Of a stretch of DNA of 61,089 bases, positions 1,584 through 42,391 are shown piece by piece. Under the pieces are notes generated by a model, which worked only from the letters and a program-made list of their open reading frames with translations, made no database searches and was not told the DNA's origin. Source of the DNA: a virus (Duplodnaviria; Caudoviricetes); IMG/VR virus record IMGVR_UViG_3300025108_000045, positions 1 through 61,089 of that record. The stretch is one strand, 5' to 3'. The translations under genes and the position numbers were made by a program. Numbering within the stretch: the stretch's first letter is position 1; each line of letters starts with the position of its first letter.

Positions 1584-1930
1584 TATGATACCTCCAATAT
1601 GAATGAGAAGCGCACTTCGTTCTGCGCATTTTTAGTGAATGAGTTAATGTCTGCGCGGTACACAGGAATGAACTCGCCTGTGGTAGCGTCTTTGTATTGA
1701 ATGTAAACTTCTTGAATCGGCTTGCTGAACACATACGAAGAGTTGAATGAGCCTTCAACGAGCAGGCTGGTGTCGTCAATGATTTGCACGCGCGGCACTA
1801 CTCTTGCAAGTGTTCGCGCACCACCATCGTCGGAGGTTGCGACCGTTCCGTCGCTTCCAATGTGCAACTCGTTGACAAGCGTAGCGAGGTGTTCAACCAA
1901 GCGTCTCTTTACGGCGTTGAGCATTGGCAT
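1583..1930 (-). CDS. Small beta-rich tail-tip/fibre-attachment protein (115 aa)
   Basis: Translationally coupled on both sides; lies between baseplate and fibre genes. Function inferred from position. Confidence 0.55.
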
Positions 1931-2523
1931 TATTGTTCCTCCAATAAATTACCATCTTCGTCAAAGAACTGACTCATGTATTTCCTATGGTCTAAATCGG
2001 GGTTCTCGCCATGAAAGTTCAAAACAGGTACTTCTGTATCACCATGTCCCATTTGCCTCAATGCTTCCATGCGATGTCCTCCTTCCTGATGCCCTATCGC
2101 GGGCATTCCCAAAACTTGCCCGTCTTTGATACCGTCTATGATGCTTTGAATATGCGCGGTTCCTAAATCCGGCCAACGATATTCTTTGCCGTCAATCGTT
2201 CTTGGGTTTGTGTCATACCCGTTTTCTGCTAAACGGTCAAAGTATTGATTGGGTGTCATATTTTTCACACGCGCTACATTACGACTTTTATCCCAATCTC
2301 TTTCTCCTGTTTCGGGGTTAGTGCCATACGCTTCTGTGCCTAAAGAGTGACCTATCATTCCTTTTGGGTGATTGTTATACGCGTCTATTACTTGTTGGTC
2401 TGCGCCGTATTCGGGAAAGCCGAATGCGTGTTCATTATGCTGATAAGCCATTTGAACACCGGGAACATTTGTATCAACAACAGGCATTTTAAGAAACAAC
2501 CAAGCCCTCTGCATCGGGTTCAT
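1930..2523 (-). CDS. Leader-bearing (MNPMQRAWLFLK) protein with a ParB/Srx-like domain (197 aa)
   Basis: ATG 2523 overlaps the upstream TGA. C-terminal QEGGHRMEALRQMG...VPVL resembles the ParB N-terminal GxxRxxA motif. Confidence 0.6.
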   Translation of the reverse strand: MNPMQRAWLFLKMPVVDTNVPGVQMAYQHNEHAFGFPEYGADQQVIDAYNNHPKGMIGHSLGTEAYGTNPETGERDWDKSRNVARVKNMTPNQYFDRLAENGYDTNPRTIDGKEYRWPDLGTAHIQSIIDGIKDGQVLGMPAIGHQEGGHRMEALRQMGHGDTEVPVLNFHGENPDLDHRKYMSQFFDEDGNLLEEQ

Positions 2524-4193
2524 CAAATCTTCCTCCTAATCTTTTTGCCCTTGACCGTTCTCATCTCATGCGCGCGAGGTCGGAGCATACGAATCTCCCC
2601 GATAGGTGAGGGTATTGCGGCCCCGCTTACCAAAGTTGCGCCTGTGAAGGTGGTGGCTGTTCTCCCACTGTACGAGACAAATGACTGATTGTCGAGGATG
2701 AGGTGGCCGCTATCAGCAAAACCGTCTGTGCTGGTGACAGTGATTGTTCCGCCACTGTGCGTGCCGTTGATGCGCGGTGTAATTCCAAAGCCAAGTGCAG
2801 ACCTTCCACCCCCGTATCCAACGCTACGGTGCGCCAATAAGACACCTCCGTGAATGTCGGGGGAAGTATTGATGCCGCTTGTTCTTGTTCGCGCCAGTGT
2901 TGTGATAACAGGTCTTACGCTTAGCGCCCCTTTGACCCTCAGTTGCGAACCGCCGACACCGCTCTTGTTGATTTTGACAATTTGAAAAGTTCTGTCAACT
3001 TCATCATCTTCTGCCTCAACATCGCCGCTGTCGCCGAATCCTGTCAATACAGATTCAAGCCCCGCTTCATAAGAAATCATTTGAAAGTCCGATTCTCCTG
3101 TCGAAGAATGGTTCACCTCAATCAAGGCTTGCCGCACACTACCGACCGGAGAGTCGTATTCAACAATGTCACCGGGTTCTAAATCCCAAGAGAGTGTGTG
3201 TCTTTTTGATACGAGGCCACCCTGCGCTTTTCTGTTCAAACGGAGTGCTTGGTTTGCTGACTTGCGCGCCGCAGTTTCATTGTTAGCGGTTGGGTCAAAG
3301 GTTGTCATTTGTTTAATTGAGCCGTGCTTCTTTTGCAACTCAGCATCATCGACTTGCACGCTAATTACATCATTGACTGCAATACCCTTGCCTCTTACAA
3401 TCACTCTGTTTGCAACATCAACTACGGGGTCGATGCTCGTCTCGCCTACACCGCGCTGAATTCCCAAGGTTCTGTCTTTGACTTGGAATACTTTAGGAGC
3501 ATAAAGGAAGTTCCCAAACCTATCGTAGTAAATAACGAAATGGTCATGTCGAGCGACAGAACGGATGGCGCTTGGAAGAACAAGTGAATTGAAGTTCTTA
3601 GCCACAAAGAGTGCGCTTGTCCCTTTCGTTGCAACACTGTTCAACCCGTGTAACGCTTTAGTGAATAATTTCTCAACCAAATCTGTACTGCGCAGTCCTA
3701 CGCTAACTGCTTGACCAGCATGCACATGGCGCGTTCTCCCCATTTGCAATTCTGCCAAACTGCGCCCCTTCATATTGTTGAGAGCAATTCGCGCTCCCTT
3801 GTCGGAGACGCTGATGTTATCAGTTCTCAACCGTAATGATGTGTCCGTGGAATCGTACAGTAGCATCGGTCGCTTGGATGTAGGAGAAAGGCGCTCGCCG
3901 TCAAAGAAAGGGGCGTCTTCGTGAGTGGTGTGTGCTAAACGCACGCCTGCGGATTCTTCGCTGAAACGGTATCGGCGAGGGTGACTGCTTTGGAAGTCCG
4001 CTTGGTTAGGTTTGTCCACTTGAGAAGTCAAGCCATTGTTCTGCGCGGGCTTGTAAATGACATGGTGAACTGCATTGTCAACAAATGTAGGTTCCTCCGC
4101 CACTGAACCTACATGTTCGTGAATAGCATCCGACCGTCCATTGCTTGGAGCGGCGTAAGATGTGTTGCTCGGAGAAGGCACTGTGTAGGTCAT
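2523..4193 (-). CDS. Baseplate hub/tail-tip protein (556 aa)
   Basis: Follows the giant tail protein. IYYDRFGNFLY...VANRVIVRG...LEPGDIV pattern is typical of hub/Tal-like proteins. Confidence 0.65.
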   Translation of the reverse strand: MTYTVPSPSNTSYAAPSNGRSDAIHEHVGSVAEEPTFVDNAVHHVIYKPAQNNGLTSQVDKPNQADFQSSHPRRYRFSEESAGVRLAHTTHEDAPFFDGERLSPTSKRPMLLYDSTDTSLRLRTDNISVSDKGARIALNNMKGRSLAELQMGRTRHVHAGQAVSVGLRSTDLVEKLFTKALHGLNSVATKGTSALFVAKNFNSLVLPSAIRSVARHDHFVIYYDRFGNFLYAPKVFQVKDRTLGIQRGVGETSIDPVVDVANRVIVRGKGIAVNDVISVQVDDAELQKKHGSIKQMTTFDPTANNETAARKSANQALRLNRKAQGGLVSKRHTLSWDLEPGDIVEYDSPVGSVRQALIEVNHSSTGESDFQMISYEAGLESVLTGFGDSGDVEAEDDEVDRTFQIVKINKSGVGGSQLRVKGALSVRPVITTLARTRTSGINTSPDIHGGVLLAHRSVGYGGGRSALGFGITPRINGTHSGGTITVTSTDGFADSGHLILDNQSFVSYSGRTATTFTGATLVSGAAIPSPIGEIRMLRPRAHEMRTVKGKKIRRKI

Positions 4194-7100
4194 AGCGTCG
4201 CCTCCTTGTCGGTTCTGTCACTTTCGTTAGCATGGTCGCCTGTATTCAAATCATCACCCGCATACAACTGTTGAGTGTAGCGCGGCTGAACATTGTAATC
4301 AAGTCGAATGAAAGAATCTTGTTCATCTTGCACAGACTGCCTTCGGCTTGCGTCGCCTCGGAAGTGTTGCAAAGTATTACTTGATACAATCATTCGCGCA
4401 ACAGACTGTGTTGCTGTCGATTTGAAGTCACTTGCGCCGCTACCTGCAATCTTAGGCCCTGTACTTACAGGTGCGCTGGTTGATGCTGATAGATTGAATA
4501 AATACACAGGCGCGTATGGAGGGTTGTTTGGAGCAGGGTTGCTACCACGCATGTAGGTCGAAGCCGCATCAGCGGCGCGTGCGTTAGGGGCATCATAAAG
4601 GAACACACCGTAACGACCTGCGGCAGTTGCCGACAATACATGCGTTCTCTTATCACGGAACAATTCAATGTGTTTGTTATCAAGCACGCGTACAGGACGA
4701 ACGAGGAACTTGATAGTCTCATCTTTAGCGTTTGTTTTGTAAGATTTTGAATCATGGTTGCTGGTTTGATATGGGTTGGTGCTCGCACCGCTCGCTGAAC
4801 CCCAAAGATAATCGTCAATTGGTTCTCCTTCGGAACTCAATTCTAAGATGAATGTTCCGCCCATAACTGGAACTCCGTGCGTTGTCCCAAATCTCAAAAC
4901 CTGCTTGGTTGAAGCAAAGTCAAGTGTATGTAAATTGAGATTATCAAGCGCGCGGTTGGCTGTACTAACGCCGCCTGTTAGAATAAAGCGCTGACCAACC
5001 TGTCTGTCTGTGTGTAAACTGTGCGCTTCTGTGCTTGCAATTGCATAAGCCGGACCCATCTCACCATCATTCTCACCAACTGTCATCGTATCCAAACCAA
5101 TACGCGGTTTTGATTTTGCAATTGGTTCTTGCATGAAAGTGAAGTTTGAATGCTCAACATTGTTTCCTATGTTGGCTTCTCGCTTCAACAAACCATCCGA
5201 ACCCGCCAATTCCAAGCGAGCGCTGATTCCTCTCGGCATTTCATGAGATTCTAAATCCACATTTGAAGGACGAATCAAGCCGTTTGTGAACGGTGGTTCG
5301 CTGGTATGGTGCGAAAGAACCAACCCAAACGGTTGCATATCTTCGGATACATCTTGAAGAATGTCTTCATTGAAGTATGTCGGGTAACGAACACCGCGCC
5401 CGTCACCGCGGTCACCAACTCTCTTGGCTGTGGCAGGGTCAAAGAATCGCTCCGAGGCTACTGATGCGCGTAATGCTGTATCGCTGAACATAGTCTCAGC
5501 GGACTTGGTTCGGTCAGTAGCGCGGTATGCATCTTCCGGGTCCCATGACGGGCGAATACCAAACCCGCGCACAGGGAACCTGCGAACATCTTCGCCTGTG
5601 GTATTACCCCACCAGTCAATCATGTAGTGTGCTTGAGCAAGCGCGAGATTAACTCGTTGGTCAACAACATCTGTTCCTGCTTTCAAACCCGCAGGTGTGT
5701 CGGAGTGGAAGCGGCGGATGGCAGTGGATGGGTTGCGAATGTTTCGTACCGCACATCCGAATCCTTTGGTCATGCGCCGTCCATCACTGTACTGAACCTG
5801 TTGACCTTTGAGGTTTGTTCCAACAAGCGCGGATGCGTTAGTTTGTCGTTCGATGACGCCAACATAAGACGGTTTGACATTTGTTGTTGGTGTCGTCGTA
5901 TTGGAAGCGCTTTGAGTCGTTGTTGTCATTGTTGCACCGTCGTTGCTAACGAACGGCCCTTCTGCTTGGTAGTGATAATTAGTGTAGGGGTCGCGCAGTG
6001 CTTGATTTGCTTTGATAGCCCAACGAGGACGATTGTATGGTTGCCTTACTGATACGCGGTAGCCCCATCCAGCGTTGCGGTTAGTCGATGCTGAGTTGAT
6101 TGAGTCGGTCATGGTTTCAACATTAGCGTCAGTCACGACGAGTCCTTTAGCGTCAGTCACTTGCTTGATGTTCGGGTCGTCCCATTTGTTACGCCATCCA
6201 ACCATTGCTGTACCGTAAAGACTCAACGAACTCATTTGCGCACCAAACCTATGACCGCCCGACCAAAATGCTCCAAGTTGATACTTGCGCGATTTACCGT
6301 CTGTACCTGCTTGATGTGGATAATTAGCATCGGGGTACGCGTCTGTTAAATCGTCGCCGGGGCCTTCCCATGTTTTCATTCGGAACTTGAAAGGACCATC
6401 ACTCATGGCGTATGTGAACTCATGGTAGTGAACCGTTTCAAAATGCTCCGGTGCATGGTTGTAGGCTTTCTTGTCAACAGCCGCGTCTTCTTTGTTAGTA
6501 CGGCTGTCGGAGAACCATGTCATTGGGCGACCAAGATTGTAGTGCCACATACAAAGATACGCGTCGGGGAGATGCATTGAGTTGGTATCGCGCGTCCCCG
6601 ACAACAGTTGCGGCAGGTTGCGTGTAGCAATACTCTTGGTTGAATCGTTGTAATACGCGCTGGCATTGAAGTTATTGTAGGGTGAAGTTAAGCGAACGGT
6701 CGCGCCTTGAACAGCCGCGGCCCAAAAGCCACTTGTCACAGGAGCCACTCCGTTGAAAACAACTGGACCTGTTGCCCCTGTTTGACTGATGTAGCCGCGG
6801 TCAGTGTAAGTCGCTGTTTGTTCAACGCCGTCTGCGTCAACGATAAGCAAGTGGTGGTTGTAATAGTCGCTACCGACTAACGGGAAGAGCGTGTTGTTCT
6901 GCACATACAACTTACCTGTACCGCTAATTGAATGTTCGATTGTCGCAACAGGTGTGAGTGAAGTGAGGTATTCAGTGTAAACATCAAGGTAGTGCGACGG
7001 GTAGCCGAGCATCGTGGTCTGTGTCCCCACTGCTCCGAGGGTTGAGCGACAGAAGTGATAGTAGTCGTCGGGTTGATACTGCTCTATTCGCTTCCATTTG

Positions 7101-10100
7101 TTTGTCGCAAATATCGTTGAAGAGTCAAGCGCGGCGCTCCACCATGGCACAGTCACTGTATTTCCGGGTGTGGCACGGTGGAACATGTTGGGATGGTATG
7201 GTAGGCTACGGCGGGTGAACGCTCCCGATGATGTAGCATTGACACCGAATGGGTTTGCAAGACCAAGAATAGGAGTGTTCGCGAACTGTTCGCGAGTGGA
7301 AGCATCATGGTCAAGAATCAGTTCATTGACAAATATCTCACATCCGCGCGTATCAGCCATAGTAGCCTCGGAAAGAATGAGGTCAAACTGCACACCATTC
7401 CATTGAAGCGCAACAACCGTAGCCACCAGTTGGTCAGTCAATGAGCGCTTGGTTGAGTTTGCTCCACTTGGGTCTTCGGGTGCATCGGTGTTAGCATACT
7501 CAGTGTTCTCATTGTTCCCCATAAACTGCTTGCTGAACAGGTTAGGTTGAATGACAATTTGATACGCGCCTACCTCAGCAGGGTCGGGGAAGTTCCATGA
7601 TGTATTGTAATTGCTTCCGCTTTCGAGTTGTATTCGATGTCCACCCGCTTTGTTGCAAACAGCGCTGTCGTCAGCCATTCCATAACCATCGAAGCGCAAC
7701 TTAGTTTCTGTCAACAATGTGAAGCCGTCACCATGAATATCGCTTGGTGGCTGAGGTGATGTTGGACCCGAAAACCAAAGCAGAGGATTGTGAACAGCCT
7801 TGCTTGAATCAGCATCAGTTGCTCCAAAACAAGCGCGAGCGTTTGCATTTAATTTTTGATACAGTGGGTGAGCAAGATGACCGGGGAGCATAGCCATAGT
7901 GGGGGCAACATAATGATGACCCATGCGGGGTAGCGGCATTGGAGTGAGTTTGTTAGCCGCGCGAACAAGAGTTGCAGGGCTTACTCCTGCCGGAAGATTA
8001 GCCCAATCAGTGTGGGGCTTGTCGGGACTGTTCCCACTTACTTCTGCATGGTCACGCAGTCTGCGAGCGGCAAACTGTCGCGTCGAGCCAGCAGGGATAT
8101 AGAAAGATGGTTTGATGCCATCGTCCTCCTTGGCCGTAAAGTCGGGCGCGAAGACAACCTGTTGGAATTGTTTACCACTTACTTCTTTGAACGAAGCGAT
8201 TGTGCCGTTGACTGAAAGGAAGTAGCGTCCGTCGGGTGTAGGGTCTTGCTTCCAAATGTCAGCGGTGATGGTTTCTTTTGCGGTAATTGTATCTGTTCCA
8301 ACCACATCAACCGTGAGACGGTTGAGTGTCATAGCGTTGTTGATGATGCTCAACGGTTCGCGTTCAGTGTAGGTGTACCCCATCTTGGTGATGTGGAAAT
8401 ACAACGCGCGGTCGTGAGGTTCGTAGGCTGTTTCGAGGATGTTCTGTGATTGAAGACTGTTGTTACTGTCGGGGAAGTTGTTAGGGTTTTGATTGATGTG
8501 TTCGTACCCTTCTTGCTCCCAACGAGGCGCGGTGTTAGGTCGAGCAGACTCCGACTCAAATGAACTCAATACTTCTGCGGTGGGTTGACTTGGGTGTTGC
8601 AACCCTCCGCTACCAAGTGTTTCGTTTTGATAAGCCTGCAACCTATCGAAACCAGCGCGTACAAGGATATTCCCCGGTATCTCATCGTGGTTTGGTAAGC
8701 GTATTTTCATGTTTGGCGATACACCGGAGCCTGCCAAAGCAGGAGCAAGACCTTCATTTTCGCGGTCATGCACCAGTTCATAGTCGCGTATCACTACACC
8801 AAGAGGTGAGCCGCCCTCAAGCGTATGCTCTTGGCCTGTATCATCGACAACGACAGTGCTGACAAACTGCATCTCTTCGTTGGGTATGCTAAGAGCGTTA
8901 CGCACTTCGTAAGGGTATTGTTCAGCGAGTGAAGGGTGAGCCAGTTCTTGTGCTTGGATAATAGGAAACATGCCAGCGTTAGTTGTTTCAAACGAGAAGC
9001 GAACATTGCCGTAAATTGTTTCACCGAACTTAACATAAGAGTCACCAACCTTGTGGACAGCCCATGGTATGCTACCAAGACCGCGTGCATTTTGAGCAGG
9101 TAGCGTAAGGTTGCCGCCACTCATTCGCTTCCATACGACATGCTCAACAAAGAAGTTGCGAGCCGCGCTACGGTCTTTCCAGTGTGAGTAAATATCATCG
9201 CGATGAGTTTCGTAAACCTCGTACCCTTTCATCTCAACCTTGGCTGTTTCCGAATCGAAAAGAGGGTCGTTGGGGTAATACTTATTGTTTGGGTTCTCTT
9301 CTTTGTCAAAGAACAAGTCGCCTGTTGGGAACAAACAAGTCTCGGCCTGTGTGAGTTCGGAAGATGTTGCAGGACTGCTTGTCCAAAGAGGGGATGCGTC
9401 AGTCGGGCGTGTAATTGTTGTATCATACATGGCTTCGATATGAGGCCCTGCATTCGACTCTGCGCTGAATCGGTCGTTGTTGAATCGGTCATTGTGGTAG
9501 GACGCAACCGTGCCTCCTTGAGTTCCACCCCATTTGAGTTGAAGCATGTCGCCACAGGCTTTCTGTCCGTTGCGCGAAGCCTTAGCGATAATTGGTAAGT
9601 CACCCTCATAGGAGACTACGATGAAATGGCGCTGATGCAATCCAGTCGAGTCGTGAAGATTGTTTTTTGGAACCCAAATATACTGAGCGTTCTCTTCCTC
9701 ACCTGCACCAGTTGCTGGTCGCAAAATCCATTCCATGGATGCAGGTTGATGACATGCCATGCCGGAGCCGTATGGGTTGAATCCAAGCATAGGATGCCAT
9801 GCTCCTAACCCTGCCGCTACCTTATCACTGATGTTGAGACTGTTGAAGTATGAATAGCGCTCGCCATGCCAACCGACTGCGCCAACTGCGCGCGTGCGGT
9901 CAATAGCGTCAGTCACGCCACTGAAATGAACTTGTGTGGATGCGTAATGGTCGAAAGGTCCGTTAGACATTTGACCGGAACTTGTTGCCCCTGTTGCGCG
10001 AGTTCCGTCAACTGCGTTTTGGAATCCATTATCCCATCGCAAATTACCTGCCTTTGACCAAACGAAAACTTTGTGACCTGCTCCTTCAACACTGGACACA

Positions 10101-19471: not shown

Positions 19472-19472
19472 G

Positions 19473-20645: not shown

Positions 20646-22354
20646 ACAGCAGACCTCCTGTTTCCATAGGAACGACCGCCACGACCCATCTCAGCGCGAA
20701 TAAGGTCGCCAATTTCGCGAGCCAATTGCTTCTTGTCGGTCCTATCAGTCACACCTCCGACATTGATGTTGATAGTTGTACCACTGCCGCCTCCCAAACC
20801 AATACCGTCGGGGTTGTTGCGCTTGCTGAGAGGCACGACTGCTTCGGGTCCATCCTCGCCAATCATCGCGAGCGTCGGACTGTTGACGATACCACCCTTC
20901 GCGAGTTGAGGGATTTGCGGTAGCGAGAAATTCTTACCCCCGATAAGTGGGACATTATCGGGTATCTTAAAATCAAAACCTTTCGCGAAATCATTGTAAA
21001 TATCAACCACAGCGTTGAATGCATCTTTGAAACCGCTGACCAATCCGTCTTTGATGGTGGTTGGTATGCTCAAGAACCACTCCTTGAGCGCATCTCCACC
21101 GTCAAATAAAGCGGTCCAAAACCCTGTGACCACATTAACCAAAGCCGTCCAAAGACCATTGACAATGCCGAGAACAACTCCTACAATGAGGGCTAAAGCA
21201 GTCCCTATTCCTCCGGCAAGCAAAGCCAAGCCAGCAAGCGCGCCATAGAATATCAAGCCAGCCAATCCAAATAACCAATCCTTCGCTGTGGTAAGCAGTG
21301 CCATTATTTCATCCCAATAGCGAATTACAGACGCGACGACGAAAATGATAGCCGCGATGATAGCCGCAGGGACAGCCGCAACCCCGACGAGGAAAAGTCC
21401 CAAACCAATAAGAATGGCACTACCGATACCAAGCAGTATGGCTTTGAATCCATTAGCCGAACCTGTCAAGTAGGCAATCATACCACCAGCGCCAACCATG
21501 ATGAGAGCGAAGCCCCCTAAGACAGCCATGAGTGTGCGACCCACCACGGCCTGTAAAAGAAGTGAAGCAGTGCTACCCCAACCAAAGAAGCCCACCATCA
21601 AAGCGAAGAACCCTGTGAAGACACCAGCCGCTACGAGTGTAGCCGCCGCTACACTGTCAGTCTCGTTCTTCACTAATTGATACACACCAACGGCGGCAAA
21701 TACAGCCCCTATGGTCAAAGCCAAAGGAGCATTGAAGATAGCGAAAGCAACCGCTGTTGCAAGAACGGAAACCGCGAGAATATCAAACAAGGCCGTTAAA
21801 CCATCATCACCTTCGCCTGCGATAACGAGCACCAACCCTTGCATCGCATCATGCAATGGACCCATGTTTTCAGTGAGGGTCAGTACAACACTGTTCGACC
21901 CGTCGAATGCAATTGATAATGCGGCTAACGCGAAGCCTACAATGAGGAATATGCTTACCAGTGAAAATATGCGCGTCACTAAACGAGTGAATCTGTTATT
22001 CGCGGTATTGAGAATCGCATTGTTTGCTTTCGCGACACCGCCAAAGAACAACATACCAACCGTCAACTTCTGTAAAGCAGTCAAATCTTTGTAGCGGTGT
22101 TCTCTTTCTTCTTGGCTCATCGCCGCGGAGTTTGCAACAAACTTGGTGACATTACCCACCGCTTTAGCCATCCCCGCAAGGCTACGAACCATTCCTGTGA
22201 TTGGGTTTTTCGCGAACGCGGTTTTGATTTTGAGTTGTTGCTTTTCAAGCACACCCATTTTCTTCGACACATTGAGGTTGATGATACCAAGTTGCTCTAA
22301 TTGTTGAACAAGTTTTTCAATCTCATCAGCAACACCATCAATCTCATTCGCCAT
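20642..22354 (-). CDS. Tail tape measure protein (570 aa)
   Basis: Follows the chaperone pair; helical and hydrophobic; C-terminal LAKGGIVNSPTLAMIGEDGPEAVVPL motif typical of tape measure proteins. Confidence 0.85.
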   Translation of the reverse strand: MANEIDGVADEIEKLVQQLEQLGIINLNVSKKMGVLEKQQLKIKTAFAKNPITGMVRSLAGMAKAVGNVTKFVANSAAMSQEEREHRYKDLTALQKLTVGMLFFGGVAKANNAILNTANNRFTRLVTRIFSLVSIFLIVGFALAALSIAFDGSNSVVLTLTENMGPLHDAMQGLVLVIAGEGDDGLTALFDILAVSVLATAVAFAIFNAPLALTIGAVFAAVGVYQLVKNETDSVAAATLVAAGVFTGFFALMVGFFGWGSTASLLLQAVVGRTLMAVLGGFALIMVGAGGMIAYLTGSANGFKAILLGIGSAILIGLGLFLVGVAAVPAAIIAAIIFVVASVIRYWDEIMALLTTAKDWLFGLAGLIFYGALAGLALLAGGIGTALALIVGVVLGIVNGLWTALVNVVTGFWTALFDGGDALKEWFLSIPTTIKDGLVSGFKDAFNAVVDIYNDFAKGFDFKIPDNVPLIGGKNFSLPQIPQLAKGGIVNSPTLAMIGEDGPEAVVPLSKRNNPDGIGLGGGSGTTININVGGVTDRTDKKQLAREIGDLIRAEMGRGGRSYGNRRSAV

Positions 22355-22358
22355 TTTT

Positions 22359-22628
22359 TCACCATCCTTCGCTAAACGGCATCGGGCCGTGAGTTGAGCC
22401 TACGCGCGTCTTGTTCTTTGCACCATCGGTCGCCTTCTTCATCTCTTCGGCTTTCAAGCGTTCAGCGGCTACTCCCCACGCGAAAGATTTCTCGAAAGCG
22501 CTAATCGGCATATTCCACACATCAACCATACTCAACCCATAATGTTTCGCGACGAAGTACGCCGCTGAGTCAAAAGCCATGTCAGCGTCGGGGGTCGGTT
22601 TGCTCATGAAGTCGTAAACTTCACTCAC
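22359..22628 (-). CDS. Tail assembly chaperone, -1 frame extension (lambda gpT-like)
   Basis: Lies in the -1 frame of the upstream chaperone and is open from the slippery site (F-S-G-W-G-E-R-V-S-E-V-Y...). Confidence 0.75.
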   Translation of the reverse strand: MSEVYDFMSKPTPDADMAFDSAAYFVAKHYGLSMVDVWNMPISAFEKSFAWGVAAERLKAEEMKKATDGAKNKTRVGSTHGPMPFSEGW

Positions 22629-22987
22629 TCGTTCGCCCCACCCGCTAAAGGGTTCGCCATCAAGTCTTGAGGTTGAGGTAGCAGTGAAGTTATTTGTTGC
22701 GCAACAAAGGGTTTGAGCGCAGTCATTTGAGGAATGGTCAATCGTGGTTCAGTCTTCTCGATGCCGTTAATCAACATGTATTTCCAATAATTCGCGAGGT
22801 CAATATCCACACTACCATTGGTGGTGATGGTGACGAAAGTTTTGATTGCTTCTTGAAGTTGCATGAAGGATAACTCCTTCACCCATACTCTCATAACAAC
22901 ATCTTCGTCGTCTTCGCTCACTCTTATTTCATGCTCCACCGCTTGGTTACTCACCAAGAGGCTCATCGGGTCTGCTATTTTCGGCAT
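22625..22987 (-). CDS. Tail assembly chaperone (lambda gpG-like, 120 aa)
   Basis: Between tail tube and tape measure genes; ends at the slippery site; likely start MPKIAD. Confidence 0.75.
   Translation of the reverse strand: MPKIADPMSLLVSNQAVEHEIRVSEDDEDVVMRVWVKELSFMQLQEAIKTFVTITTNGSVDIDLANYWKYMLINGIEKTEPRLTIPQMTALKPFVAQQITSLLPQPQDLMANPLAGGANE
22646..22652 (-). other. Programmed -1 ribosomal frameshift slippery heptamer C CCT TTA
   Basis: X XXY YYZ in the correct phase near the chaperone 3' end; downstream hairpin TGAAGT-ttacg-ACTTCA (22607-22623). Confidence 0.75.
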
Positions 22988-23351
22988 CGTTCTCACTTAC
23001 TCCATCATCGCCTGCCGCGGCTTCTTCCGAAGGAACGGCTTCATCCACTTCAACTGCCTCATCCGAGGGGGCGTCCGCTTCAATTAGGCGAGCAATGAGT
23101 TCCGCCTTTGTACCAGTGACAGGAAGAGTGCGCGCTCGTAGGAGCGCTTTCAATTCTTCCACAGTCATAGATTCGTATGTTGGTTCCGCAACTTCAACAG
23201 GCTGTTCTTCTGTTTGTTGCTCTTCGGGGAATGGGTTGCCGTCAGTGAGCGCGGCATCGGGGTTGAATACTTCTTCAACAACTTGGGGTTCTTCAACAAC
23301 ACCGCGAAGGCGTAGTGGTCGTTCGTCGCCTGTGTGCATACTCTTCATCAT
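22947..23351 (-). CDS. Acidic SAP-domain protein (about 134 aa)
   Basis: YESMTVEELKALLRARTLPVTGTKAELIARL matches the SAP consensus; start overlaps the upstream TGA. Confidence 0.8.
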   Translation of the reverse strand: MMKSMHTGDERPLRLRGVVEEPQVVEEVFNPDAALTDGNPFPEEQQTEEQPVEVAEPTYESMTVEELKALLRARTLPVTGTKAELIARLIEADAPSDEAVEVDEAVPSEEAAAGDDGVSENDAENSRPDEPLGE

Positions 23352-23491
23352 CAGCACCCCATCTTTTCGCAGGTTGAGCCTTTTGATTTGCACTTAGGAC
23401 AGGTCTTGCAACCACGGCAACCTTTGCAGTCATCGCCTTTGCACATACTTTCTTTCAGTAGCGTTCCCCAACTTTCTCTCATCGGATTCAT
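23351..23491 (-). CDS. Leader-bearing Cys-rich microprotein (46 aa; absent from ORF track)
   Basis: Manual translation MNPMRESWGTLLKESMCKGDDCKGCRGCKTCPKCKSKGSTCEKMGC; GAGGTGA SD; fills the gap exactly. Confidence 0.8.
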   Translation of the reverse strand: MNPMRESWGTLLKESMCKGDDCKGCRGCKTCPKCKSKGSTCEKMGC

Positions 23492-23501
23492 CTTGTTCAC
23501 C

Positions 23502-25424
23502 TCACATGTGCAGGAAAGCATCGCGCGAGATTACGCGCACATGCTTTGGCATAATTTTCAATTCACTCTTGATAACGCCCTTATCTTCGGGGATAGGAAG
23601 CGGAGCCGACTCAATGATGTAGTCGTCAATAACGATAGTAATTTCTTCGCGGTTAGCACCAGCACCAGCCTTGGTCAGCGTGAGTGTGATTGGCTCAGTG
23701 AACGAGTGAGTCCTGTTTGTTCGGAACTCATGCCAAATGAGAGGGTCGCTTGCGATGATGGTCATGCTGAGACTGTATTCCATCTTCTTCTCAATCATGA
23801 GGTTAGCGTTGCGCGAACCACCGAATGGGATTTGTTCAAGGGAATCACCAGCGGTGTTGCGGGTTTCCGCTTGACCGTTCCCTCGAATGGTGTAAATTGC
23901 TTCTGTGTTGTTGTTGCCTTCAAGAGAGAAGTTAGTGACTTGCGCGATGTTGGTTCCGAATGAACTGATTTGACCATTGTAAAAGAAGTATGGCTTCTCA
24001 GTGTTTGGAGCGATACCAGCCTTCTTGCGGTTGACTGTGGAGTTAGCAGTGTTCTCAAACATACGGTGCGCGGTGTATCTGTCACCTTTGCTGGTATCTT
24101 CAAGACGACCTGTATCGGTGTAGCAGTAAAGCGCGTCGAAGTTGATTGATAATTTTACTTCTGCATCAGCATCAGCCGCGAGCGAGAAGTCCTTGACTTT
24201 GCATCCTTTCCATACGCGCGTAAGTTGCTTGCTGTCGTTAGCGGAGCCGGGCGCGGCTTCGTTAGCAAGAGCGTCAGTTGCGTTGCCGTTGAACGAGCCA
24301 ACATTGTGTGTTCGGATGCTGGATTCAATAGCGAATGAAGGAATCGTAGCGCCGGAGAATAGAAGTCGTGATTGGCGGTTGGTGATTGTTCCGAAAGATG
24401 CGGCAGTGGTGACAAAATCCGGTGAGCCTGTTGTTGTCGGGTCAGTGTAAGATACGCGCTTTAGTGAGTATCCCGTGTGACTGAAATGCAACGGCTCTTC
24501 AAGATGCAAGCGTAGTGTCGTTGTATCAATGTAAAGCACTTGACGAATTTCGTTCCTTTCGGCGTGTTGCAAATCGGTAGCCGTGGACCCATCACCCCAT
24601 TTAGCCCCTGTTGGCTGAACAAGGTCGGATGGGAAATTGGTGGCTGTACCGTCCTTGATAATGATGTATTCACCAGCCGAGAGGTTTGAGAGTGTGCCTG
24701 TGTATTCAACATAAGTGTCACCAGCGGCTATGTCCTCGAATGATGTTGCAGTGGGGTCACCGGAGATAACTGCCGTAGGTTCGTCAATAATTTCGCGACC
24801 AAGTGCGTAATACAACCAGCGCGCGCTGTTCATCATTGTCTCAAGAGAGCCACCCGTGTTCTCGAATCGTTGTGGTTCTTGGATGACCACATCACGACCG
24901 ACGCCTACTACATGAGCGCGTCGCACTTCCACTTTGGTTTCCGGTAGCGCAACGGTTGCGGCAAGACCAACGAATTGGTCCGTAAGGACAGACTCGTCGG
25001 ACGAATCGGCATTTGCATTGTAGGTGCTTCCTACATCAATAGTCGGTGTGCCTACGGTATCAATGATGAGTTCGTCACCGGATAATGATGTAGTGCTTGT
25101 GGATTTCATAGGAGGCGAAACGGTGAGTGAATCGCCACTGTTTGCGACAATTGTGTAAACATGGCCTTTGGTAGCATTGTCGTCAGCGGTGAAAGCACCA
25201 CTACCGATAACGCGAAGTTGCGAACCGACAAGCATACCCGCAGGGTATCGCAGAAGTGAACCGCTTGAGAAGAAACCTTCCGTCGCGCCTGTGAAGAGGA
25301 TGCCAGTGCCAGCGGCATTCGTCGCGAAACGAAGACCACCGAAGCCATCAAACGCCAGTGCGAGTCCACATTCTTTACCGAATGTCACTTCGGATAGGTC
25401 GCCTTTATACACTGTTGATGCCAT
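23502..25424 (-). CDS. Major tail tube protein (640 aa) with inserted domains
   Basis: Follows the terminator gene and precedes the chaperones; tube-like segments (RVWKGCKVKDFSL, VTNFSLEGNNN, IESAPLPIP). Confidence 0.75.
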   Translation of the reverse strand: MASTVYKGDLSEVTFGKECGLALAFDGFGGLRFATNAAGTGILFTGATEGFFSSGSLLRYPAGMLVGSQLRVIGSGAFTADDNATKGHVYTIVANSGDSLTVSPPMKSTSTTSLSGDELIIDTVGTPTIDVGSTYNANADSSDESVLTDQFVGLAATVALPETKVEVRRAHVVGVGRDVVIQEPQRFENTGGSLETMMNSARWLYYALGREIIDEPTAVISGDPTATSFEDIAAGDTYVEYTGTLSNLSAGEYIIIKDGTATNFPSDLVQPTGAKWGDGSTATDLQHAERNEIRQVLYIDTTTLRLHLEEPLHFSHTGYSLKRVSYTDPTTTGSPDFVTTAASFGTITNRQSRLLFSGATIPSFAIESSIRTHNVGSFNGNATDALANEAAPGSANDSKQLTRVWKGCKVKDFSLAADADAEVKLSINFDALYCYTDTGRLEDTSKGDRYTAHRMFENTANSTVNRKKAGIAPNTEKPYFFYNGQISSFGTNIAQVTNFSLEGNNNTEAIYTIRGNGQAETRNTAGDSLEQIPFGGSRNANLMIEKKMEYSLSMTIIASDPLIWHEFRTNRTHSFTEPITLTLTKAGAGANREEITIVIDDYIIESAPLPIPEDKGVIKSELKIMPKHVRVISRDAFLHM

Positions 25425-25444
25425 ATTATCTGCTCCGCCTTGGT

Positions 25445-25885
25445 TTACGCGATGAGTTCGCTAAAGATAACGATTTCGACTTGGAAGGTCATCCTGTGTA
25501 GCCTCTTCGTCCGGTCCGAAAGGTCAGTCCGTAATTTATAGAGTAATCGGTCAAAATTAGCCCCATCGCCCTTTCTTTTGCTATGGATGATGCGCCGAAC
25601 TTCATCTTCGATTTTCATGAGGTGCGGTCGTCCATTCATGGTGCGCGCATCGACTGTTACATTGATTCGCGTGTGAACGAAATCATAGAACACTTCGGGC
25701 TGTTCTTCCGCGTGCATGGTTTCGTAAAGAAGGATTGCGTCTTTGTTGGTAAGGTCGAGACGCTTCCCGCGTCCCGCTTCGACTGTGGTAATGTCTTCAA
25801 CGATAGGTGTTCGCTGATTCGTGTTACCACGATTCCACCCTGTGGTGAGAATGTCTTTCATAAGTTCGATTGATTCAAGCGCCAT
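25445..25885 (-). CDS. Tail terminator/completion protein (146 aa)
   Basis: Size, alpha/beta pattern and position directly upstream of the tail tube gene. Confidence 0.6.
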   Translation of the reverse strand: MALESIELMKDILTTGWNRGNTNQRTPIVEDITTVEAGRGKRLDLTNKDAILLYETMHAEEQPEVFYDFVHTRINVTVDARTMNGRPHLMKIEDEVRRIIHSKRKGDGANFDRLLYKLRTDLSDRTKRLHRMTFQVEIVIFSELIA

Positions 25886-26159
25886 TCAACCAACTCCCGA
25901 TATGTGACTGAGCGCGTGCTTGCTTCTTCGCTTTGCTGATGATGGCTTGGTAGTCGGGGTCGTTTTCTTTCATAACTTCACCGTTCTCCTTGATGATTTC
26001 CCCTTTGCTGTTGACAGCCGCGCCATAGTCAAGAGCGCACGCATCAAGGAAGATGCGCCCCTTGTCAGTAAAGATGGTATTCTCGCGCGCTTGAGCGATG
26101 GTTTCACTCAAGGCTTTAGCGAGTCCCTTCTTGATGGCTTCTTGCATACTATCACTCAT
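25875..26159 (-). CDS. Hypothetical neck-region protein (about 94 aa)
   Basis: Coupled ORF; likely start MSDSMQ. Confidence 0.55.
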   Translation of the reverse strand: MSDSMQEAIKKGLAKALSETIAQARENTIFTDKGRIFLDACALDYGAAVNSKGEIIKENGEVMKENDPDYQAIISKAKKQARAQSHIGSWLNGA

Positions 26160-26484
26160 CTTCGGGTCGCGGTGTTCGTTGAATTGATTGTTTTGGCTCA
26201 CTGTGGTAATCGGGGTTGTCCTTCATTTGTTCGCTTGTGTGTTTTTTAGCATCCCTTCTTACCTGTTGTAGCATTTGTTGTTGGTTTGCCTGTTCAAACG
26301 CTTCTGCTATGCGAGAAACGCCATGCTCGCGGTCGCCATCACCTTCAAATCCATGTCCGTAAGGGTCCATTTCTTGTGAAAAGTTGTGATAATTCATCAC
26401 CGAGGGATGAACAGCATTTCCTTCGCTATCAAGCATTCTTGGGTTGCCTTTCAAAAATATCCATGCTTCTTTCATTGGGTTCAT
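26152..26484 (-). CDS. Leader-bearing (MNPMKEAWIFLK) hypothetical protein (110 aa)
   Basis: In-operon ORF carrying the shared leader. Confidence 0.7.
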   Translation of the reverse strand: MNPMKEAWIFLKGNPRMLDSEGNAVHPSVMNYHNFSQEMDPYGHGFEGDGDREHGVSRIAEAFEQANQQQMLQQVRRDAKKHTSEQMKDNPDYHSEPKQSIQRTPRPEDE

Positions 26485-26488
26485 AGTA

Positions 26489-28069
26489 TCACAACACCGT
26501 CATTATCTCTGTGTAGCGCGGTAGCGTCTCCGCAACCTGCGCTTTGAATAATTGATACTTGCTACCCAAGTCCACATTCTGTGTTCCTTCGGGCAGTAGC
26601 ACGCTTCTGTCATCGGACAGAATCAAATCCATCGCAACCAACTTAGTACAAATATCTTCAATCGCCTTCTCGACATATCTCTCGCCGTACACATAGGATG
26701 CTTTGACGGCATTCCATGAGAAGTAAGGGTATGAGTTGTTGAAGTAAATGACGCCCAACTCGTAGTCAGCCCACCAATCGCGAAGACGAGCCTCGTCACC
26801 TGTGCTTGTTCCAACATAGTCAATCTTGAATTGCTTCTGTTTGAGGATAGCGCCAGCCGTTGCCGCCGCGGTAATGTCTCCAACAAGGTCGGTGACGCCG
26901 TTGAGCGTATTACCTGTGATGCTGGTGTAATACCCGTATGCCGCACCGATGTTGATAATGCCGAACGGTACGAGGGTTGTAATGTCGTTGAGAGTGATGG
27001 TTGTCGCTGTGGATGCGCTGACAGTTGTCTCAAGGTCAGTCGCGCCAGTGAAAGTGACGCCGGGTGATGTGCAAGCGTAAGTCGCGTTTTGTCCTGCTGA
27101 GCCGCGTCGCATAGAGGTGATTTTCAATTGAGCCGCTCCGTAGTCCGAGTTAGCGGAAGCCATGAACTCATGATGAACGCTGGCTGAAACAGTACCGTCA
27201 CTTTCTGTTATGTCTTCAAAGAGGAAAGAGGGAGTGAATGGTGTAGCGGCTTTTCCTTTGCGCGCATTCATGTTGATGAGGTCAGCCAACTGTTGTGCAG
27301 TGCTTACATTATCGAATTGCGCGCGGAACTTGGAACTTCCGTCACCTGCTTGTAATGTCGCGACACCGCCGCCGCCGGGACATAGGAATACTTTGTCAGT
27401 ATCAGCGGTGATTTGAGTGTAGTCGTGAATCTTGAGTCGAATTTCAGCCGCCGCTATTTCACGATAATCGTTGCCTTGCCATATTTCAAGACGAAGAATC
27501 TGTTGCGCGTTACGGAACATGAGAGGAACAGAACCCACATAATCAGTGTAGTAGCGACGACGATATGGTTTGTAGGTATCGAAATTGATGTACTCGGCAG
27601 TTTGCAACATGGGTCGCCATGCGTTGTTTGTAAGGTTGTCAATCTTATCTTGAGTTCGCAGAATGAGCGTCTCGACCTGTGCCTTGGTGATGCCCTTTCT
27701 CTTGCCGTTAGTGAAAGATTGGAGGTTTTGCACTTCTGCATTGTCAGCCGTAGTGTAATCGCCGGTCAAAGCGTCTGTAAAAGATAAGCGCACATTGCCG
27801 GAAGCGCGAGCAATGCTTGTGATAGTTCGCTCTTCACCCATCTCGGAATCACTGGCAATCTCAATTTTGTCACCTACTTCAAATCCAACCAATCGGTAGT
27901 CTGCGGGGGTTATGTCAACATGCGTCGAGCCGTCTTCTGCGGCCAAGTAAACAGGGTCGGGGAATGGTATTTGTAAAATGTCTGCAACTTTCTGTGCTGA
28001 TGTGTAGTAAAGTCTGTCGGGGAATAGAGGTCGTCCTTCGCGCTCACCTGTTTCAAACACAGTAGGCAT
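26489..28069 (-). CDS. Head-tail adaptor (gp6/gp15-like) with inserted beta domains (526 aa)
   Basis: YYTSAQKVADIL, LILRTQDKIDNLT and C-terminal SYVYG...AIEDICTKLVA fit the adaptor pattern; downstream of the capsid gene. Confidence 0.7.
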   Translation of the reverse strand: MPTVFETGEREGRPLFPDRLYYTSAQKVADILQIPFPDPVYLAAEDGSTHVDITPADYRLVGFEVGDKIEIASDSEMGEERTITSIARASGNVRLSFTDALTGDYTTADNAEVQNLQSFTNGKRKGITKAQVETLILRTQDKIDNLTNNAWRPMLQTAEYINFDTYKPYRRRYYTDYVGSVPLMFRNAQQILRLEIWQGNDYREIAAAEIRLKIHDYTQITADTDKVFLCPGGGGVATLQAGDGSSKFRAQFDNVSTAQQLADLINMNARKGKAATPFTPSFLFEDITESDGTVSASVHHEFMASANSDYGAAQLKITSMRRGSAGQNATYACTSPGVTFTGATDLETTVSASTATTITLNDITTLVPFGIINIGAAYGYYTSITGNTLNGVTDLVGDITAAATAGAILKQKQFKIDYVGTSTGDEARLRDWWADYELGVIYFNNSYPYFSWNAVKASYVYGERYVEKAIEDICTKLVAMDLILSDDRSVLLPEGTQNVDLGSKYQLFKAQVAETLPRYTEIMTVL

Positions 28070-28440
28070 CAGTCATCCCTCTCTCGCAAAGCCTCAAGTC
28101 GTCGTATAATTTTCTTAGGTATGCCCTTTTTTGGGTAGTGTCCATGCTTTTCATAAAACGCTTGAATCGCTTCTCTCGCAGGACCAACCTGTCGCCCCTC
28201 TTTCAACATGGCGCGTATGCGCTGTGCTTCATCCACTTTTGCTTGTTTCATGTCTATTTGATGCTGATACGATTGAGTCTGTGGCGTTTGTTGTGGAGCG
28301 GTGTTTTGGGCTTGTTGAGACACTTGTTGCTGTTGCCGTTGCATTTCGCGCATCTGTTGCGCCGCTTCGGGGAAACCTGCGGCCTCCATCTCTTCGGGCG
28401 TCATCTTGAGTAAGAGCCAAGCCTTTTCAAAAGGGTTCAT
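28069..28440 (-). CDS. Leader-bearing (MNPFEKAWLLLK) Gln-rich protein (123 aa)
   Basis: GAGGTGA SD; ATG overlaps the upstream TGA. Confidence 0.75.
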   Translation of the reverse strand: MNPFEKAWLLLKMTPEEMEAAGFPEAAQQMREMQRQQQQVSQQAQNTAPQQTPQTQSYQHQIDMKQAKVDEAQRIRAMLKEGRQVGPAREAIQAFYEKHGHYPKKGIPKKIIRRLEALRERDD

Positions 28441-28902: not shown

Positions 28903-29157
28903 TCATCGCTTACCGACTGCGAACAATTTGCCACCCAATGCTGTGCCGGGGTCGCCGTGAGTCACGGTGGTTCCAGTAATTACAATCGTTTCTTGAGGCA
29001 CGCCTGCGCCACCCCCGTTAGGGTTGACCATAGCCATGAGGATTTCACTCATGTAGTCGCTAAGGTCTGTGCTTGTGTCGCCGTCCTCGACAGTGCCTGT
29101 AATCACAATTAGATTGCCCATTGCTTGTGGTCGTGTATCTGCTGTAAATGCCATCAT
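28903..29157 (-). CDS. Small beta-rich protein, candidate capsid decoration protein (84 aa)
   Basis: Two genes after the capsid gene; Gly/Thr-rich beta pattern. Confidence 0.5.
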   Translation of the reverse strand: MMAFTADTRPQAMGNLIVITGTVEDGDTSTDLSDYMSEILMAMVNPNGGGAGVPQETIVITGTTVTHGDPGTALGGKLFAVGKR

Positions 29158-42267: not shown

Positions 42268-42391
42268 GACGCATCACCTCACCGCTCCCGTCCATGGCTA
42301 AGGGATTACCGTTTTTAAGCCAACAGTCTTTACAAAATCCAAAAGGATAAATTACGGGGCTGTGATAACACTCCCCGCAATAAGTTGACAT
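42254..42391 (-). CDS. Zinc-finger microprotein (45 aa; absent from ORF track)
   Basis: MSTYCGECYHSPVIYPFGFCKDCWLKNGNPLAMDGSGEVMRHECN; start overlaps the upstream TAA; two CxxC. Confidence 0.7.
   Translation of the reverse strand: MSTYCGECYHSPVIYPFGFCKDCWLKNGNPLAMDGSGEVMRHECN

Follow-up and report, generated by a model that had tools for sequence, protein, structure and literature searches.

The window analyzed here is the whole 61,089-base stretch of virus record IMGVR_UViG_3300025108_000045, and every predicted gene in it lies on the minus strand. Four of these genes begin with a common peptide, MNP[MF]xx[AS]Wx(2-3)LK, which is called the tag in this text; the sequence that follows it is called the body. 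An earlier note on this DNA had reported the four genes and had proposed that the shared leader is a modular address that loads accessory effectors into the virus head. The translations were found as quoted there, with starts at 2523, 23491, 26484 and 28440, and a six-frame scan of the window with the pattern NP.{3,4}W.{2,4}LK and two looser patterns returned only these four copies, each directly after an ATG. The tagged genes are listed below, together with a fifth gene that carries a degenerate copy; slots A, B and C are positions between conserved structural genes.

1930..2523, minus strand: tagged gene 1, 197 amino acids; leader MNPMQRAWLFLK encoded at 2488-2523, then a body that starts MPVVDT, contains a QEGGHRMEALRQMGHGDT box and has a predicted ParB/Srx-like fold
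23351..23491, minus strand: tagged gene 2, 46 amino acids; 13-residue leader variant MNPMRESWGTLLK, then a Cys/Lys-rich mini-domain; slot C, between the tube gene and the SAP gene
26152..26484, minus strand: tagged gene 3, 110 amino acids; leader MNPMKEAWIFLK, then GNP and an acidic low-complexity body (isoelectric point, pI, 5.3); slot B, between the 526-amino-acid gene and the neck genes
28069..28440, minus strand: tagged gene 4, 123 amino acids; leader MNPFEKAWLLLK, then a Gln-rich body with a basic C-terminus (pI 9.3); slot A, between the zinc-finger gene and the 526-amino-acid gene
42391..43068, minus strand: DUF5872 and DUF6321 protein, 225 amino acids (Pfam: DUF5872 42 bits, DUF6321 57 bits)

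A shared peptide tag in the window and in related viruses

At 2523 and 28440 the start codon shares 1 nucleotide with the stop codon upstream of it, and the starts at 26484 and 23491 lie 4 and 10 bases past that stop, respectively; the ATG at 23491 is preceded by GAGGTGA. Tagged gene 1 is placed after the gene for a 556-amino-acid tail protein. Behind the tag, the four bodies belong to four different blastp clusters (E 1e-3), so that the description of them as unrelated stands, and the Cys-rich and Gln-rich character of two of them is evident from the sequences. The bodies of genes 4, 3 and 2 fall into clusters 0, 1 and 2, which have 22, 16 and 14 members, and cluster 2 shows a conserved Cys pattern. 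Met is the first residue past the tag in genes 1 and 4 (LLK-M-PVVDT and LLK-M-TPEEM), and the same holds for 25 of 33 members of the gene-1 family; it looks as though an older start codon had received a prefix of 12 codons. Judged from these junctions, an untagged isoform that starts at this Met is conceivable.

The tag was analyzed in 138 loci in addition to the window, consisting of 56 loci with relatives of the tail tube protein and 82 stretches in IMG/VR that contain the exact leader DNA pattern. Its consensus is M-N-P-[M/F/L/I]-[D/N/E/K]-x-[A/S]-W-x-[L/V/I/F]-L-K, with a core of hydrophobic-x-x-[A/S]-W-x-[L/V/I]-L-K that is usually preceded by an N-cap residue and Pro. Position 7, just before the Trp, is Ala in 88 and Ser in 10 of the 98 twelve-residue leaders. 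The Asn and Pro are dispensable, as seen in family alignments and slot genes with MTA, MSA, MEA, MNA or MNT starts and in leaders that open at MDRAW, and shortened leaders of 7-8 residues (MSWILILK and MSFIGVLK) exist. The junction after the Lys is sharp: of 107 bodies, 99 open with A, G, E, N, Q, M or S and none with L, I, V, F, W, P, H or C, and Pro is frequent two to four residues further along.

In the 98 leaders the entropy of third codon positions is 1.5-1.9 bits, whereas the first two positions hardly vary; Pro is encoded by CCA (37), CCG (35), CCT (17) and CCC (9), Ala by three codons and Leu11 by six. Because the third positions vary freely and the encoded residues stay constant, the target of selection is the protein. 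This agrees with the synonymous differences (AAC/AAT, CCG/CCA/CCT, AAA/AAG) that had been pointed out among the window copies. The DNA 8-mer ATGAAYCC occurs at chance level in the window (4 found vs. 4.08 expected), and therefore the signal lies in the peptide and not in the DNA. If the conserved stretch had no protein function and were instead a DNA or RNA element, such as a cassette recombination site or a translation-initiation region, or a trace of common descent of 5′ ends, then it would be understandable that the genes behave as exchangeable cassettes in fixed slots and that two window copies share GATTTGATGAACCC around the start. However, there is near saturation at synonymous positions, copies also occur internally and at C-termini, and the motif survives alternative start contexts (TTG, GTG; MTA, MSA, MEA). 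This explanation is largely refuted by the codon analysis and is considered to be hardly tenable.

Catalogued over the relatives, as the earlier note had proposed, the tagged genes occupy three slots and additional arrays. The strict census over the 138 loci and the window found 110 unique proteins that start M-x-P...W...[LIVM]K, with bodies in 41 clusters, and a looser N-terminal census over 221 loci found 216 unique bodies in 105 clusters. With a pattern that requires the Trp, 130 oriented loci contained 144 copies on the coding strand vs. 3 on the other strand. The coding-strand copies were N-terminal in 116 cases and internal in 23, with 1 in a short segment and 4 unclear. A pattern that allowed either Trp or Phe was noisy (259 coding-strand vs. 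68 non-coding-strand contexts), and the internal counts from the looser census were discarded. The strict Pro-containing pattern yielded 139 distinct contexts, 107 of which follow a Met; among these 107, an in-frame stop is found within 38 codons upstream in 100 and a Shine-Dalgarno-like site in 87. The remaining 32 contexts include some with TTG or GTG starts and about a dozen that lie deep inside long open reading frames (ORFs).

The earlier note had considered that the leader might be absent from relatives or equally common in non-virion genes, and neither was observed. The tag is present in 24 of the 29 loci that have at least 6 kb downstream of the capsid gene, and the 10 kb downstream of this gene contain 74 copies vs. 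1 on the opposite strand over the 29 loci. The five loci without a copy are two with variant leaders (L196 and L223), one with only a degenerate leader (L232), one with empty slots (L229) and one that comprises only 6.7 kb of downstream sequence (L164); the entire record behind L232 has about ten copies elsewhere. All four near-complete records carry the tag, with 5-10 copies each, and in four of four other tag-bearing records examined the capsid protein is 64-72% identical to that of the window. The forward and reverse strands of three genomes hold 0 and 10 (G001), 0 and 5 (G002), and 0 and 9 (G003) copies, i.e., 0 vs. 24, with one control-pattern match in total. No copy was found in halovirus HVTV-1 (102,319 bases). 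In 596 Gb of bacterial and archaeal genomes there were 13 pattern matches, none of them in Poseidoniales: 7 in ORFs of 8-29 codons, 1 in a 64-codon ORF, 4 inside longer ORFs and 1 at the start of a substantial ORF. The tag is effectively absent from cellular genomes.

In the AlphaFold2 (AF2) model of the gene 1 protein, residues 3-11 are predicted to be helical, and M4, A7, W8 and L11 lie on one face of the helix. The hydrophobic moment is 0.37-0.46, compared to a median of 0.24 and a 95th percentile of 0.47 in shuffled sequences. As modeled, the tag looks like an N-capped amphipathic helix of two and a half turns between flexible segments. Signal peptides of the Sec, Tat or prepilin type are strictly N-terminal, with a charged N-region and then a hydrophobic core of about 7-20 residues. 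When the tag was compared with the Sec, Tat and class III types, it fitted none of them, as its 12 residues include no hydrophobic run longer than 3, and as it continues into a polar Pro-rich stretch and also occurs internally.

An amphipathic helix with Trp and Lys could also bind membranes, and the tag would then take late proteins to the host membrane, for example in egress or superinfection exclusion. One of the cellular matches (L150) has a similar N-terminus on a 276-amino-acid ORF, and this N-terminus presumably resembles the membrane-binding N-terminal helix of PspA/IM30 proteins. However, the helix is only about 10 residues long and its moment is modest with respect to the 95th percentile of the shuffled sequences, several copies are found inside soluble, highly charged multi-module proteins, and there is no hydrophobic stretch of the signal-peptide type. 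A membrane role is therefore judged to be highly improbable. The tag also resembles NPIExxWxxLK, which we take to be the conserved helix that carries the third catalytic residue of IS630/Tc1-mariner transposases; in two cellular pattern matches (L155 and L156) the sequence NPIEKAWSKLK lies within longer ORFs, with the upstream stop 129 codons away. DDE transposase families were absent from the Pfam matches of the four window proteins and 103 relatives, and the likeness is probably a convergence of N-capped amphipathic helices.

Structural backbone, slots and fused proteins

The tagged genes of the window are set among the structural genes listed here, all of which are on the minus strand.

53848-60819, minus strand: giant ORF of 2323 amino acids, no Pfam or PHROG match
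43453-44853, minus strand: large terminase (Pfam/PHROGs)
39035-40867, minus strand: portal protein (phrog_18178, 1.4e-75; Pfam and PHROGs), a candidate docking partner
32124-37964, minus strand: protein of 1946 amino acids between portal and protease
30687-32102, minus strand: S78 prohead protease, 471 amino acids (Pfam Peptidase_S78, 1.1e-9; head maturation protease in PHROGs)
29530-30687, minus strand: HK97-like major capsid protein (SU10_MCP, Phage_capsid; phrog_24667, 1.4e-58), a candidate docking surface
26489-28069, minus strand: backbone protein of 526 amino acids with no known role (phrog_17057, unknown function), which separates slots A and B
25445-26201, minus strand: two neck-position genes between slot B and the tube gene
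23502-25424, minus strand: tail tube protein, 640 amino acids (Phage_tube_2, 3.6e-8), the backbone gene that precedes slot C
22947-23393, minus strand: SAP-domain protein (Pfam SAP, 52.7 bits)
20642-22354, minus strand: tape-measure protein (Pfam/PHROGs)
4190-19534, minus strand: giant ORF of 5114 amino acids
Directly upstream of tagged gene 1 (start 2523), minus strand: tail protein of 556 amino acids (Pfam/PHROGs)
3-1583, minus strand: collagen-like fiber (Pfam Collagen, 8e-13, and tail-fiber PHROGs), cut by the window end

The conserved gene order is protease, capsid, two genes, h84, h57, zinc-finger gene, slot A, 526-amino-acid gene and slot B, followed by two neck genes, tube, slot C, SAP gene, two small genes, tape measure, distal tail gene and giant gene. 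This order is kept across the 56 loci, and the 526-amino-acid gene is present in all 56 loci that reach that point. The capsid protein of the window is 32.9-34.5% identical to those of haloviruses HCTV-1, HCTV-5 and HVTV-1, and nothing nearer was found among 50,697 phage records. Mean column identity of the capsid protein among 14 relatives is 87%, and 59 relatives of the tube protein were found. The capsid-gene matches in three of the related records (G003, G004 and G005) contain 1-3 in-frame TGA codons, which may fall in the match flanks.

One relative (G001) is a complete genome of 106,907 bases with terminal repeats, and its capsid and tube proteins are 77% and 58% identical to those of the window. 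It carries a structural arm like that of the window on one strand. On the other strand, where all of its replication genes lie, it encodes PolB, an RFC-like ATPase, SNF2, ERCC4 and a thermosome subunit. The main text of PMC5434244 gives thermosome and SNF2 as features of group A magroviruses and also reports a halovirus-like capsid relationship for magroviruses, whose presumed host, in the literature, is Poseidoniales (Marine Group II archaea). The halovirus-like head is found in the window, and the archaeal replication genes and the chaperonin are found in the complete relative; the window itself has no replication arm. Because of the capsid identity of about 33% to haloviruses and the gene content of the complete relative, the window is very probably the structural arm of a group-A-like magrovirus.

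Several further genes of the window deserve mention. The 1946-amino-acid ORF, like the 2323-amino-acid one, had no Pfam or PHROG match in a scan that covered these two. The 5114-amino-acid ORF is at the position expected for a tail hub or fiber, and at the position of the 1946-amino-acid ORF halovirus HVTV-1 has a 'head assembly' gene and a 1313-amino-acid protein annotated 'zeta toxin'. The SAP-domain protein occupies the usual place of tail assembly chaperones. Just after the capsid gene, the protein at 29154-29500 (minus strand) has a weak Pfam match to Ish1, presumably of a helix-extension-helix fold. Upstream of the terminase, 49550-53707 (minus strand) is a conserved block with a P-loop NTPase-like protein (IGIYGP..GKT), small membrane proteins and a helix-turn-helix protein, and it has counterparts at 56-60 kb in G001 and 91-95 kb in G003. 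A giant protein that acts as a repeat-bearing scaffold, as in the cohesin-dockerin model, was considered and rejected, since the 1946-, 2323- and 5114-amino-acid proteins have no internal sequence repeats by self-BLAST.

Slots A, B and C hold 0-3 tagged genes each, the identity and length of these genes vary, and the slots are sometimes empty; almost all slot ORFs outside the strict pattern have a variant leader. Because the tagged genes fill hypervariable, sometimes empty slots in a conserved backbone, they are regarded as accessory cargo and not as core parts. The insertion of single tagged genes among neck and tail genes, as described in the earlier note, is true of the window, but in the relatives the motif is confined neither to N-termini nor to the neck and tail region. 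In two relatives (G003 and G007) the late strand has at its upstream end an array of 9-12 or more consecutive tagged genes, and 15-30 kb separate this array from the capsid gene.

The motif is also found between the modules of fused proteins. One ORF of 485 amino acids contains two copies (L056), and another protein has one copy at its N-terminus and one before a Cys-rich mini-domain (L020). The layout in L076 and L122 is DUF5872, motif, body, motif, DUF6321-like domain and motif, and at 2972-4705 of G001 there are three modules, each after GE-PMDLA(W/M)RLLK. The gene-4 body is fused in frame behind another module in four loci (L005, L021, L032 and L056), with the motif kept at the junction. 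In the gene-1 family, P0009 reads motif, body, motif, ParB-like body and motif, with three motifs, and in P0017 and P0032 the ParB-like body is joined to other bodies via the motif, with two motifs each. Each module in a fused protein is directly preceded by a copy of its own, and the Lys of that copy always leads straight into the body. There are also a few C-terminal copies, as L018 ends with FNIAWDNLKELHW and the L122 ORF with PMDLSFRLLKGEW. From the copies between fused modules and the occasional C-terminal ones, it follows that the tag is a portable docking or processing module rather than a strict N-terminal leader.

The degenerate copy in the window belongs to this group. It reads S-PMDISSALLK-AKKK (about 42667-42696), scores 1.9 with the hidden Markov model of the leader, and lies exactly at the DUF5872/DUF6321 junction. 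Canonical copies are found at this junction in relatives (L076, L122 and G003 100098-99304), and in L103 the combination of MNPMDEAWAVLK and DUF6321 is a separate gene. Two Cys-rich mini-ORFs, 43065-43229 (54 amino acids) and 42254-42403 (49 amino acids), both on the minus strand, adjoin the window gene, and a relative of the first (L018:13349-13519) bears the motif at its C-terminus. Among three small late proteins encoded at 37974-39003, between the portal gene and the 1946-amino-acid gene, the one at 38318-38668 (minus strand) has S-P-M-R-L-L-K-R-A at residues 36-44, a shortened look-alike of the tag without the A-W pair, and its counterpart in G001 has H-P-D-S-L-L-K. A Phe-for-Trp match inside the tape-measure protein of L031 and L033 lies in a hydrophobic stretch and was judged to be due to chance.

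The fused proteins raise the question of whether the tag could be a pure protease recognition or cleavage element, a polyprotein separator without any targeting role, in which case the N-terminal copies would be leftovers of gene fission. Proteins with one motif per junction, like beads on a string (P0009, P0017, P0032, G001 2972-4705, L056, L076 and L122), the constant junction after the Lys with its restricted next residue, and a Lys at the P1 position of what is presumably the HK97 cleavage site are all in keeping with this. However, about 80% of the copies (116 of 144) are at the extreme N-terminus of stand-alone genes, where the removal of 12 residues gains nothing, the eleven conserved residues far exceed the needs of a cleavage site, and cleavage at the C-terminal copies would leave just 3-5 residues behind. 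A separator without a targeting role is therefore improbable.

Bodies behind the tag

Pfam returned a match above the cut-off for 1 of 103 bodies (DUF6321), as well as one sub-threshold GNAT match, and no match for any of the four tagged proteins of the window. With a single match that is itself a DUF, the label 'effectors' given to the bodies in the earlier note is an assumption. Relative to structural proteins, E, P, Q and R are overrepresented in the bodies and I, L, V, F and T are underrepresented. Of 107 bodies, 59 are acidic and 35 are basic, and the median length is 111 residues. The recurring themes are zinc-ribbon-like Cys clusters, a DnaJ-type CxxCxGxG repeat (below the cut-off) and basic DUF6321. 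The tagged bodies are unrelated, dispensable and mostly disordered late proteins. An ADP-ribosyltransferase-like identity was considered for bodies containing YHGT and was dropped, as there was no Pfam support. Acidic C-terminal ends are enriched in the bodies (27 of 87 vs. 48 of 442), and these probably come from ATGA-type stop/start overlaps with the next gene and not from a second signal.

Tagged gene 1 has 68 homologues. All 33 aligned members carry a leader variant and the LLK|MPVVDT-type junction, and the QEGGHRMEA box is invariant. In 24 of the 68 matches a DUF5872 domain stands in place of the leader, and its end, KPTIVK, abuts the body start MPIVDT. The AF2 model of the gene-1 body has a predicted local distance difference test score of 83.7 and a predicted template modeling score of 0.78. 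Foldseek returned nothing at E <=1e-3, with sulfiredoxin as the best match at E 0.3. The VIA-align Z scores were 6.2 for Osa, 4.4 for sulfiredoxin, 4.1 for PadC, 3.7 for a serine kinase, 3.5 for ParB-N, 3.3 for Atu1540, 3.2 for KorB and 3.1 for SbnI, all of them below the reliability level of Z ~8, and 8 of the top 9 chains are, as we understand them, proteins of the ParB/Srx fold. The ParB-like nature that had been proposed for this body thus has weak-to-moderate support from these fold similarities together with the invariant QEGGHRMEA box, with no match in Pfam or in Foldseek at the threshold used. P0001 had no tblastn match in the 50,697 phage records, and P0004 had no usable match in the ESM Atlas.

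A possible virion address and its relation to known systems

Perhaps accessory late proteins are addressed to the virion by the tag, which would be a short amphipathic helix for docking and would probably be removed after the Lys by the S78 prohead protease. This is the explanation that we favor, at a confidence somewhat short of even, because it covers most of the facts: the predicted helix under selection at the protein level, the more than 100 bodies, the N-terminal bias, the single copy for each fused module, the junction after the Lys, the restriction to the virion strand, and the absence from cellular genomes and a halovirus. The helix would dock whatever follows it onto one conserved assembly component, which may be the capsid interior, the protease or scaffold protein, or the portal, and docking would load a large, fast-turning set of accessory late proteins into the particle. 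The S78 prohead protease would then cut the tag off after the invariant Lys and separate the fused cargo modules, and the loaded cargo would be delivered into the host. In terms of the modular address proposed in the earlier note, the tag is indeed selected at the protein level, modular, family-wide and on the virion strand; the parts that did not hold are a strict N-terminal position and an association with the neck and tail genes only, given the long arrays elsewhere.

Cleavage by the S78 protease is proposed because of the sharp junction after the invariant Lys, and this enzyme, encoded near the tagged genes, is a candidate for tag removal. Its S78 domain extends to about residue 177; an extremely acidic linker comes next, and then a conserved C-terminal domain. 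Residues 168-181 of the protease, NPEAQFRILK177 followed by EDTG, are invariant in 19 homologues, and this segment could be an autocleavage site. As a copy of the tag it was rejected, since it aligns with the ordinary end of the S78 domain, where HK97 gp4 has ANEQAGIAAMK; it was kept as a weak hint. The capsid protein of HK97 reads TFNK|SLGSD at Lys103-Ser104, which we take to be the position of capsid maturation cleavage, and on this basis HK97-type proteases can cut after Lys. Two further observations are counted in favor of a virion address, namely the tight operon coupling of the tagged genes to structural genes, with 1-nucleotide overlaps or gaps of 4-10 nucleotides, and the invariant F-R-I-L-K that ends the S78 domain of the protease itself, with the acidic linker after it.

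Several points weigh against a virion address. The presence of the tagged proteins in the virion, their cleavage and their docking partner are what we infer from the properties of the tag. The C-terminal copies (L018 and L122) would release just 3-5 residues if cut, and therefore cleavage is not the whole function. If a single tag sufficed for targeting, one copy per fused module would be redundant. Many tagged genes stand in arrays far upstream, away from the head genes. T4 internal proteins are basic, whereas the bodies are more often acidic than basic, and the Pfam results contain no effector-like enzymes. The likeness of FRILK in the protease to the tag may mean nothing, as it is the canonical S78 end (IAAMK in HK97 gp4). 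The leaders of 7-8 residues are too short for a docking helix, and from these truncated leaders and the C-terminal copies it follows that docking and cutting are not both required every time. Our confidence was held at its level because of the far-upstream arrays, the acidic bias of the bodies, and a partner and packaging that are deduced rather than observed.

The helix could also bind another hub, such as a neck or tail component, a giant virion protein, the virus chaperonin or a host protein, and the tagged proteins would then be unpackaged decorations, assembly helpers or host-manipulating factors. A hydrophobic face at i, i+4 and i+7 flanked by helix breakers is typical of docking motifs and resembles the F-x-x-x-W-x-x-L motif of p53; in addition, the motif occurs at N-terminal, internal and C-terminal positions, the slots are among neck and tail genes and not head genes, and relatives encode a thermosome subunit. 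On the other hand, the copies are strictly late-strand, the N-terminal bias is strong (116 vs. 23 internal) and the junction after the Lys is sharp. The motif is not common to cellular proteins, as a single one of the 13 matches in 596 Gb starts a substantial ORF, and the giant proteins have no internal repeats that could act as multiple docking sites. Motifs that bind PCNA, i.e., the PIP box Qxx[LIM]xx[FY][FY] and APIM [KR][FYW][LIVA][LIVA][KR], do not fit the tag, which has A or S at position 7 in 98 of 98 leaders, no conserved Gln and no copy on the replication strand. Binding to such a hub is considered to be unlikely; if it does occur, the late infection cycle would have a hitherto unknown central player, to which the tag points.

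In its boldest form, the virion address would be one universal helical tag that loads a hypervariable arsenal of 5-15 proteins, from more than 100 families and partly as protease-cut polyproteins, which would be delivered into the host with the DNA. This is possible, and we consider it somewhat doubtful. If true, archaeal viruses would have their first capsid-targeting signal, and no other known signal of this kind would serve such diverse cargo. If the tag does load cargo into the particle, archaeal tailed viruses carry a protein payload comparable to that of T4 or jumbo phages, and a compact tag would be available for packaging chosen proteins into HK97-type shells. Most magrovirus genes are unannotated, and the tag places more than 100 families, represented by 5-10 or more genes in each genome, in one functional class and provides an experimental handle without a cultured host. 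Magroviruses are uncultured, and the main text of PMC5434244 reports them as dominant in the archaeal virome of the surface ocean.

The closest known parallel is found in T4, where internal proteins, and foreign ones as well, are loaded by means of capsid-targeting sequences (CTS); these N-terminal propeptides are 10-20 residues long, and gp21 removes them, as described in PMC5694885. In both viruses a short N-terminal peptide of similar length (12-13 residues in the magrovirus tag) is found on unrelated proteins, which form 41 to 105 clusters here, and a prohead protease is encoded; the T4 examples are IPI-III and Alt, and longer propeptides of this kind occur in jumbo phages of the phiKZ/SPN3US type. 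There is no sequence similarity between the T4 CTS and the magrovirus tag. T4 gp21 cuts after Glu, whereas the magrovirus has a Lys at the junction and a protease of the S78 (HK97) family. Unlike the T4 CTS, the tag is also internal, repeated in fused proteins and C-terminal, and it is found in viruses of a presumed archaeal host, with 5-10 or more tagged genes per genome and more than 100 body clusters, for which packaging and cleavage are proposed.

Encapsulins use a short terminal peptide to select diverse cargo, including heterologous fusions, for an HK97-fold shell (PMC11866011 and 10.1101/2021.03.18.436031). The magrovirus likewise combines a terminal peptide on diverse bodies with an HK97-fold shell protein. 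Encapsulin peptides are mostly C-terminal, bound in an extended form and of a different consensus, and encapsulins have no protease, DNA or tail and usually one or a few cargo types per system. HK97 maturation is similar in its S78 protease, and the Lys-Ser at the presumed capsid site matches the Lys and small residue found here. The HK97 substrate is the delta domain of the capsid protein, whereas the magrovirus capsid protein has no long N-terminal extension, and we know of no accessory cargo with a shared tag in HK97-like phages.

Morons and other accessory hotspots resemble the slots in that they hold small, variable, dispensable genes at fixed points between head and tail genes, and HK97 itself has an annotated moron between tail genes. 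To our knowledge, no peptide tag is shared among morons, which have no relationship with one another. In contrast, nearly every slot gene of the magroviruses bears the tag or a degenerate form of it. No account of the motif was found in full-text literature searches or in the main texts of PMC5434244, PMC11706807 and PMC10160649, and the tag seems to be described here for the first time. The principle of a shared terminal tag for the cargo of an HK97-type shell is already known. What appears to be new, with the function still to be proven, is the tag sequence, its presence in viruses of an archaeal host, the scale of its cargo diversity, its genomic arrangement in slots and arrays, and its use between fused modules.

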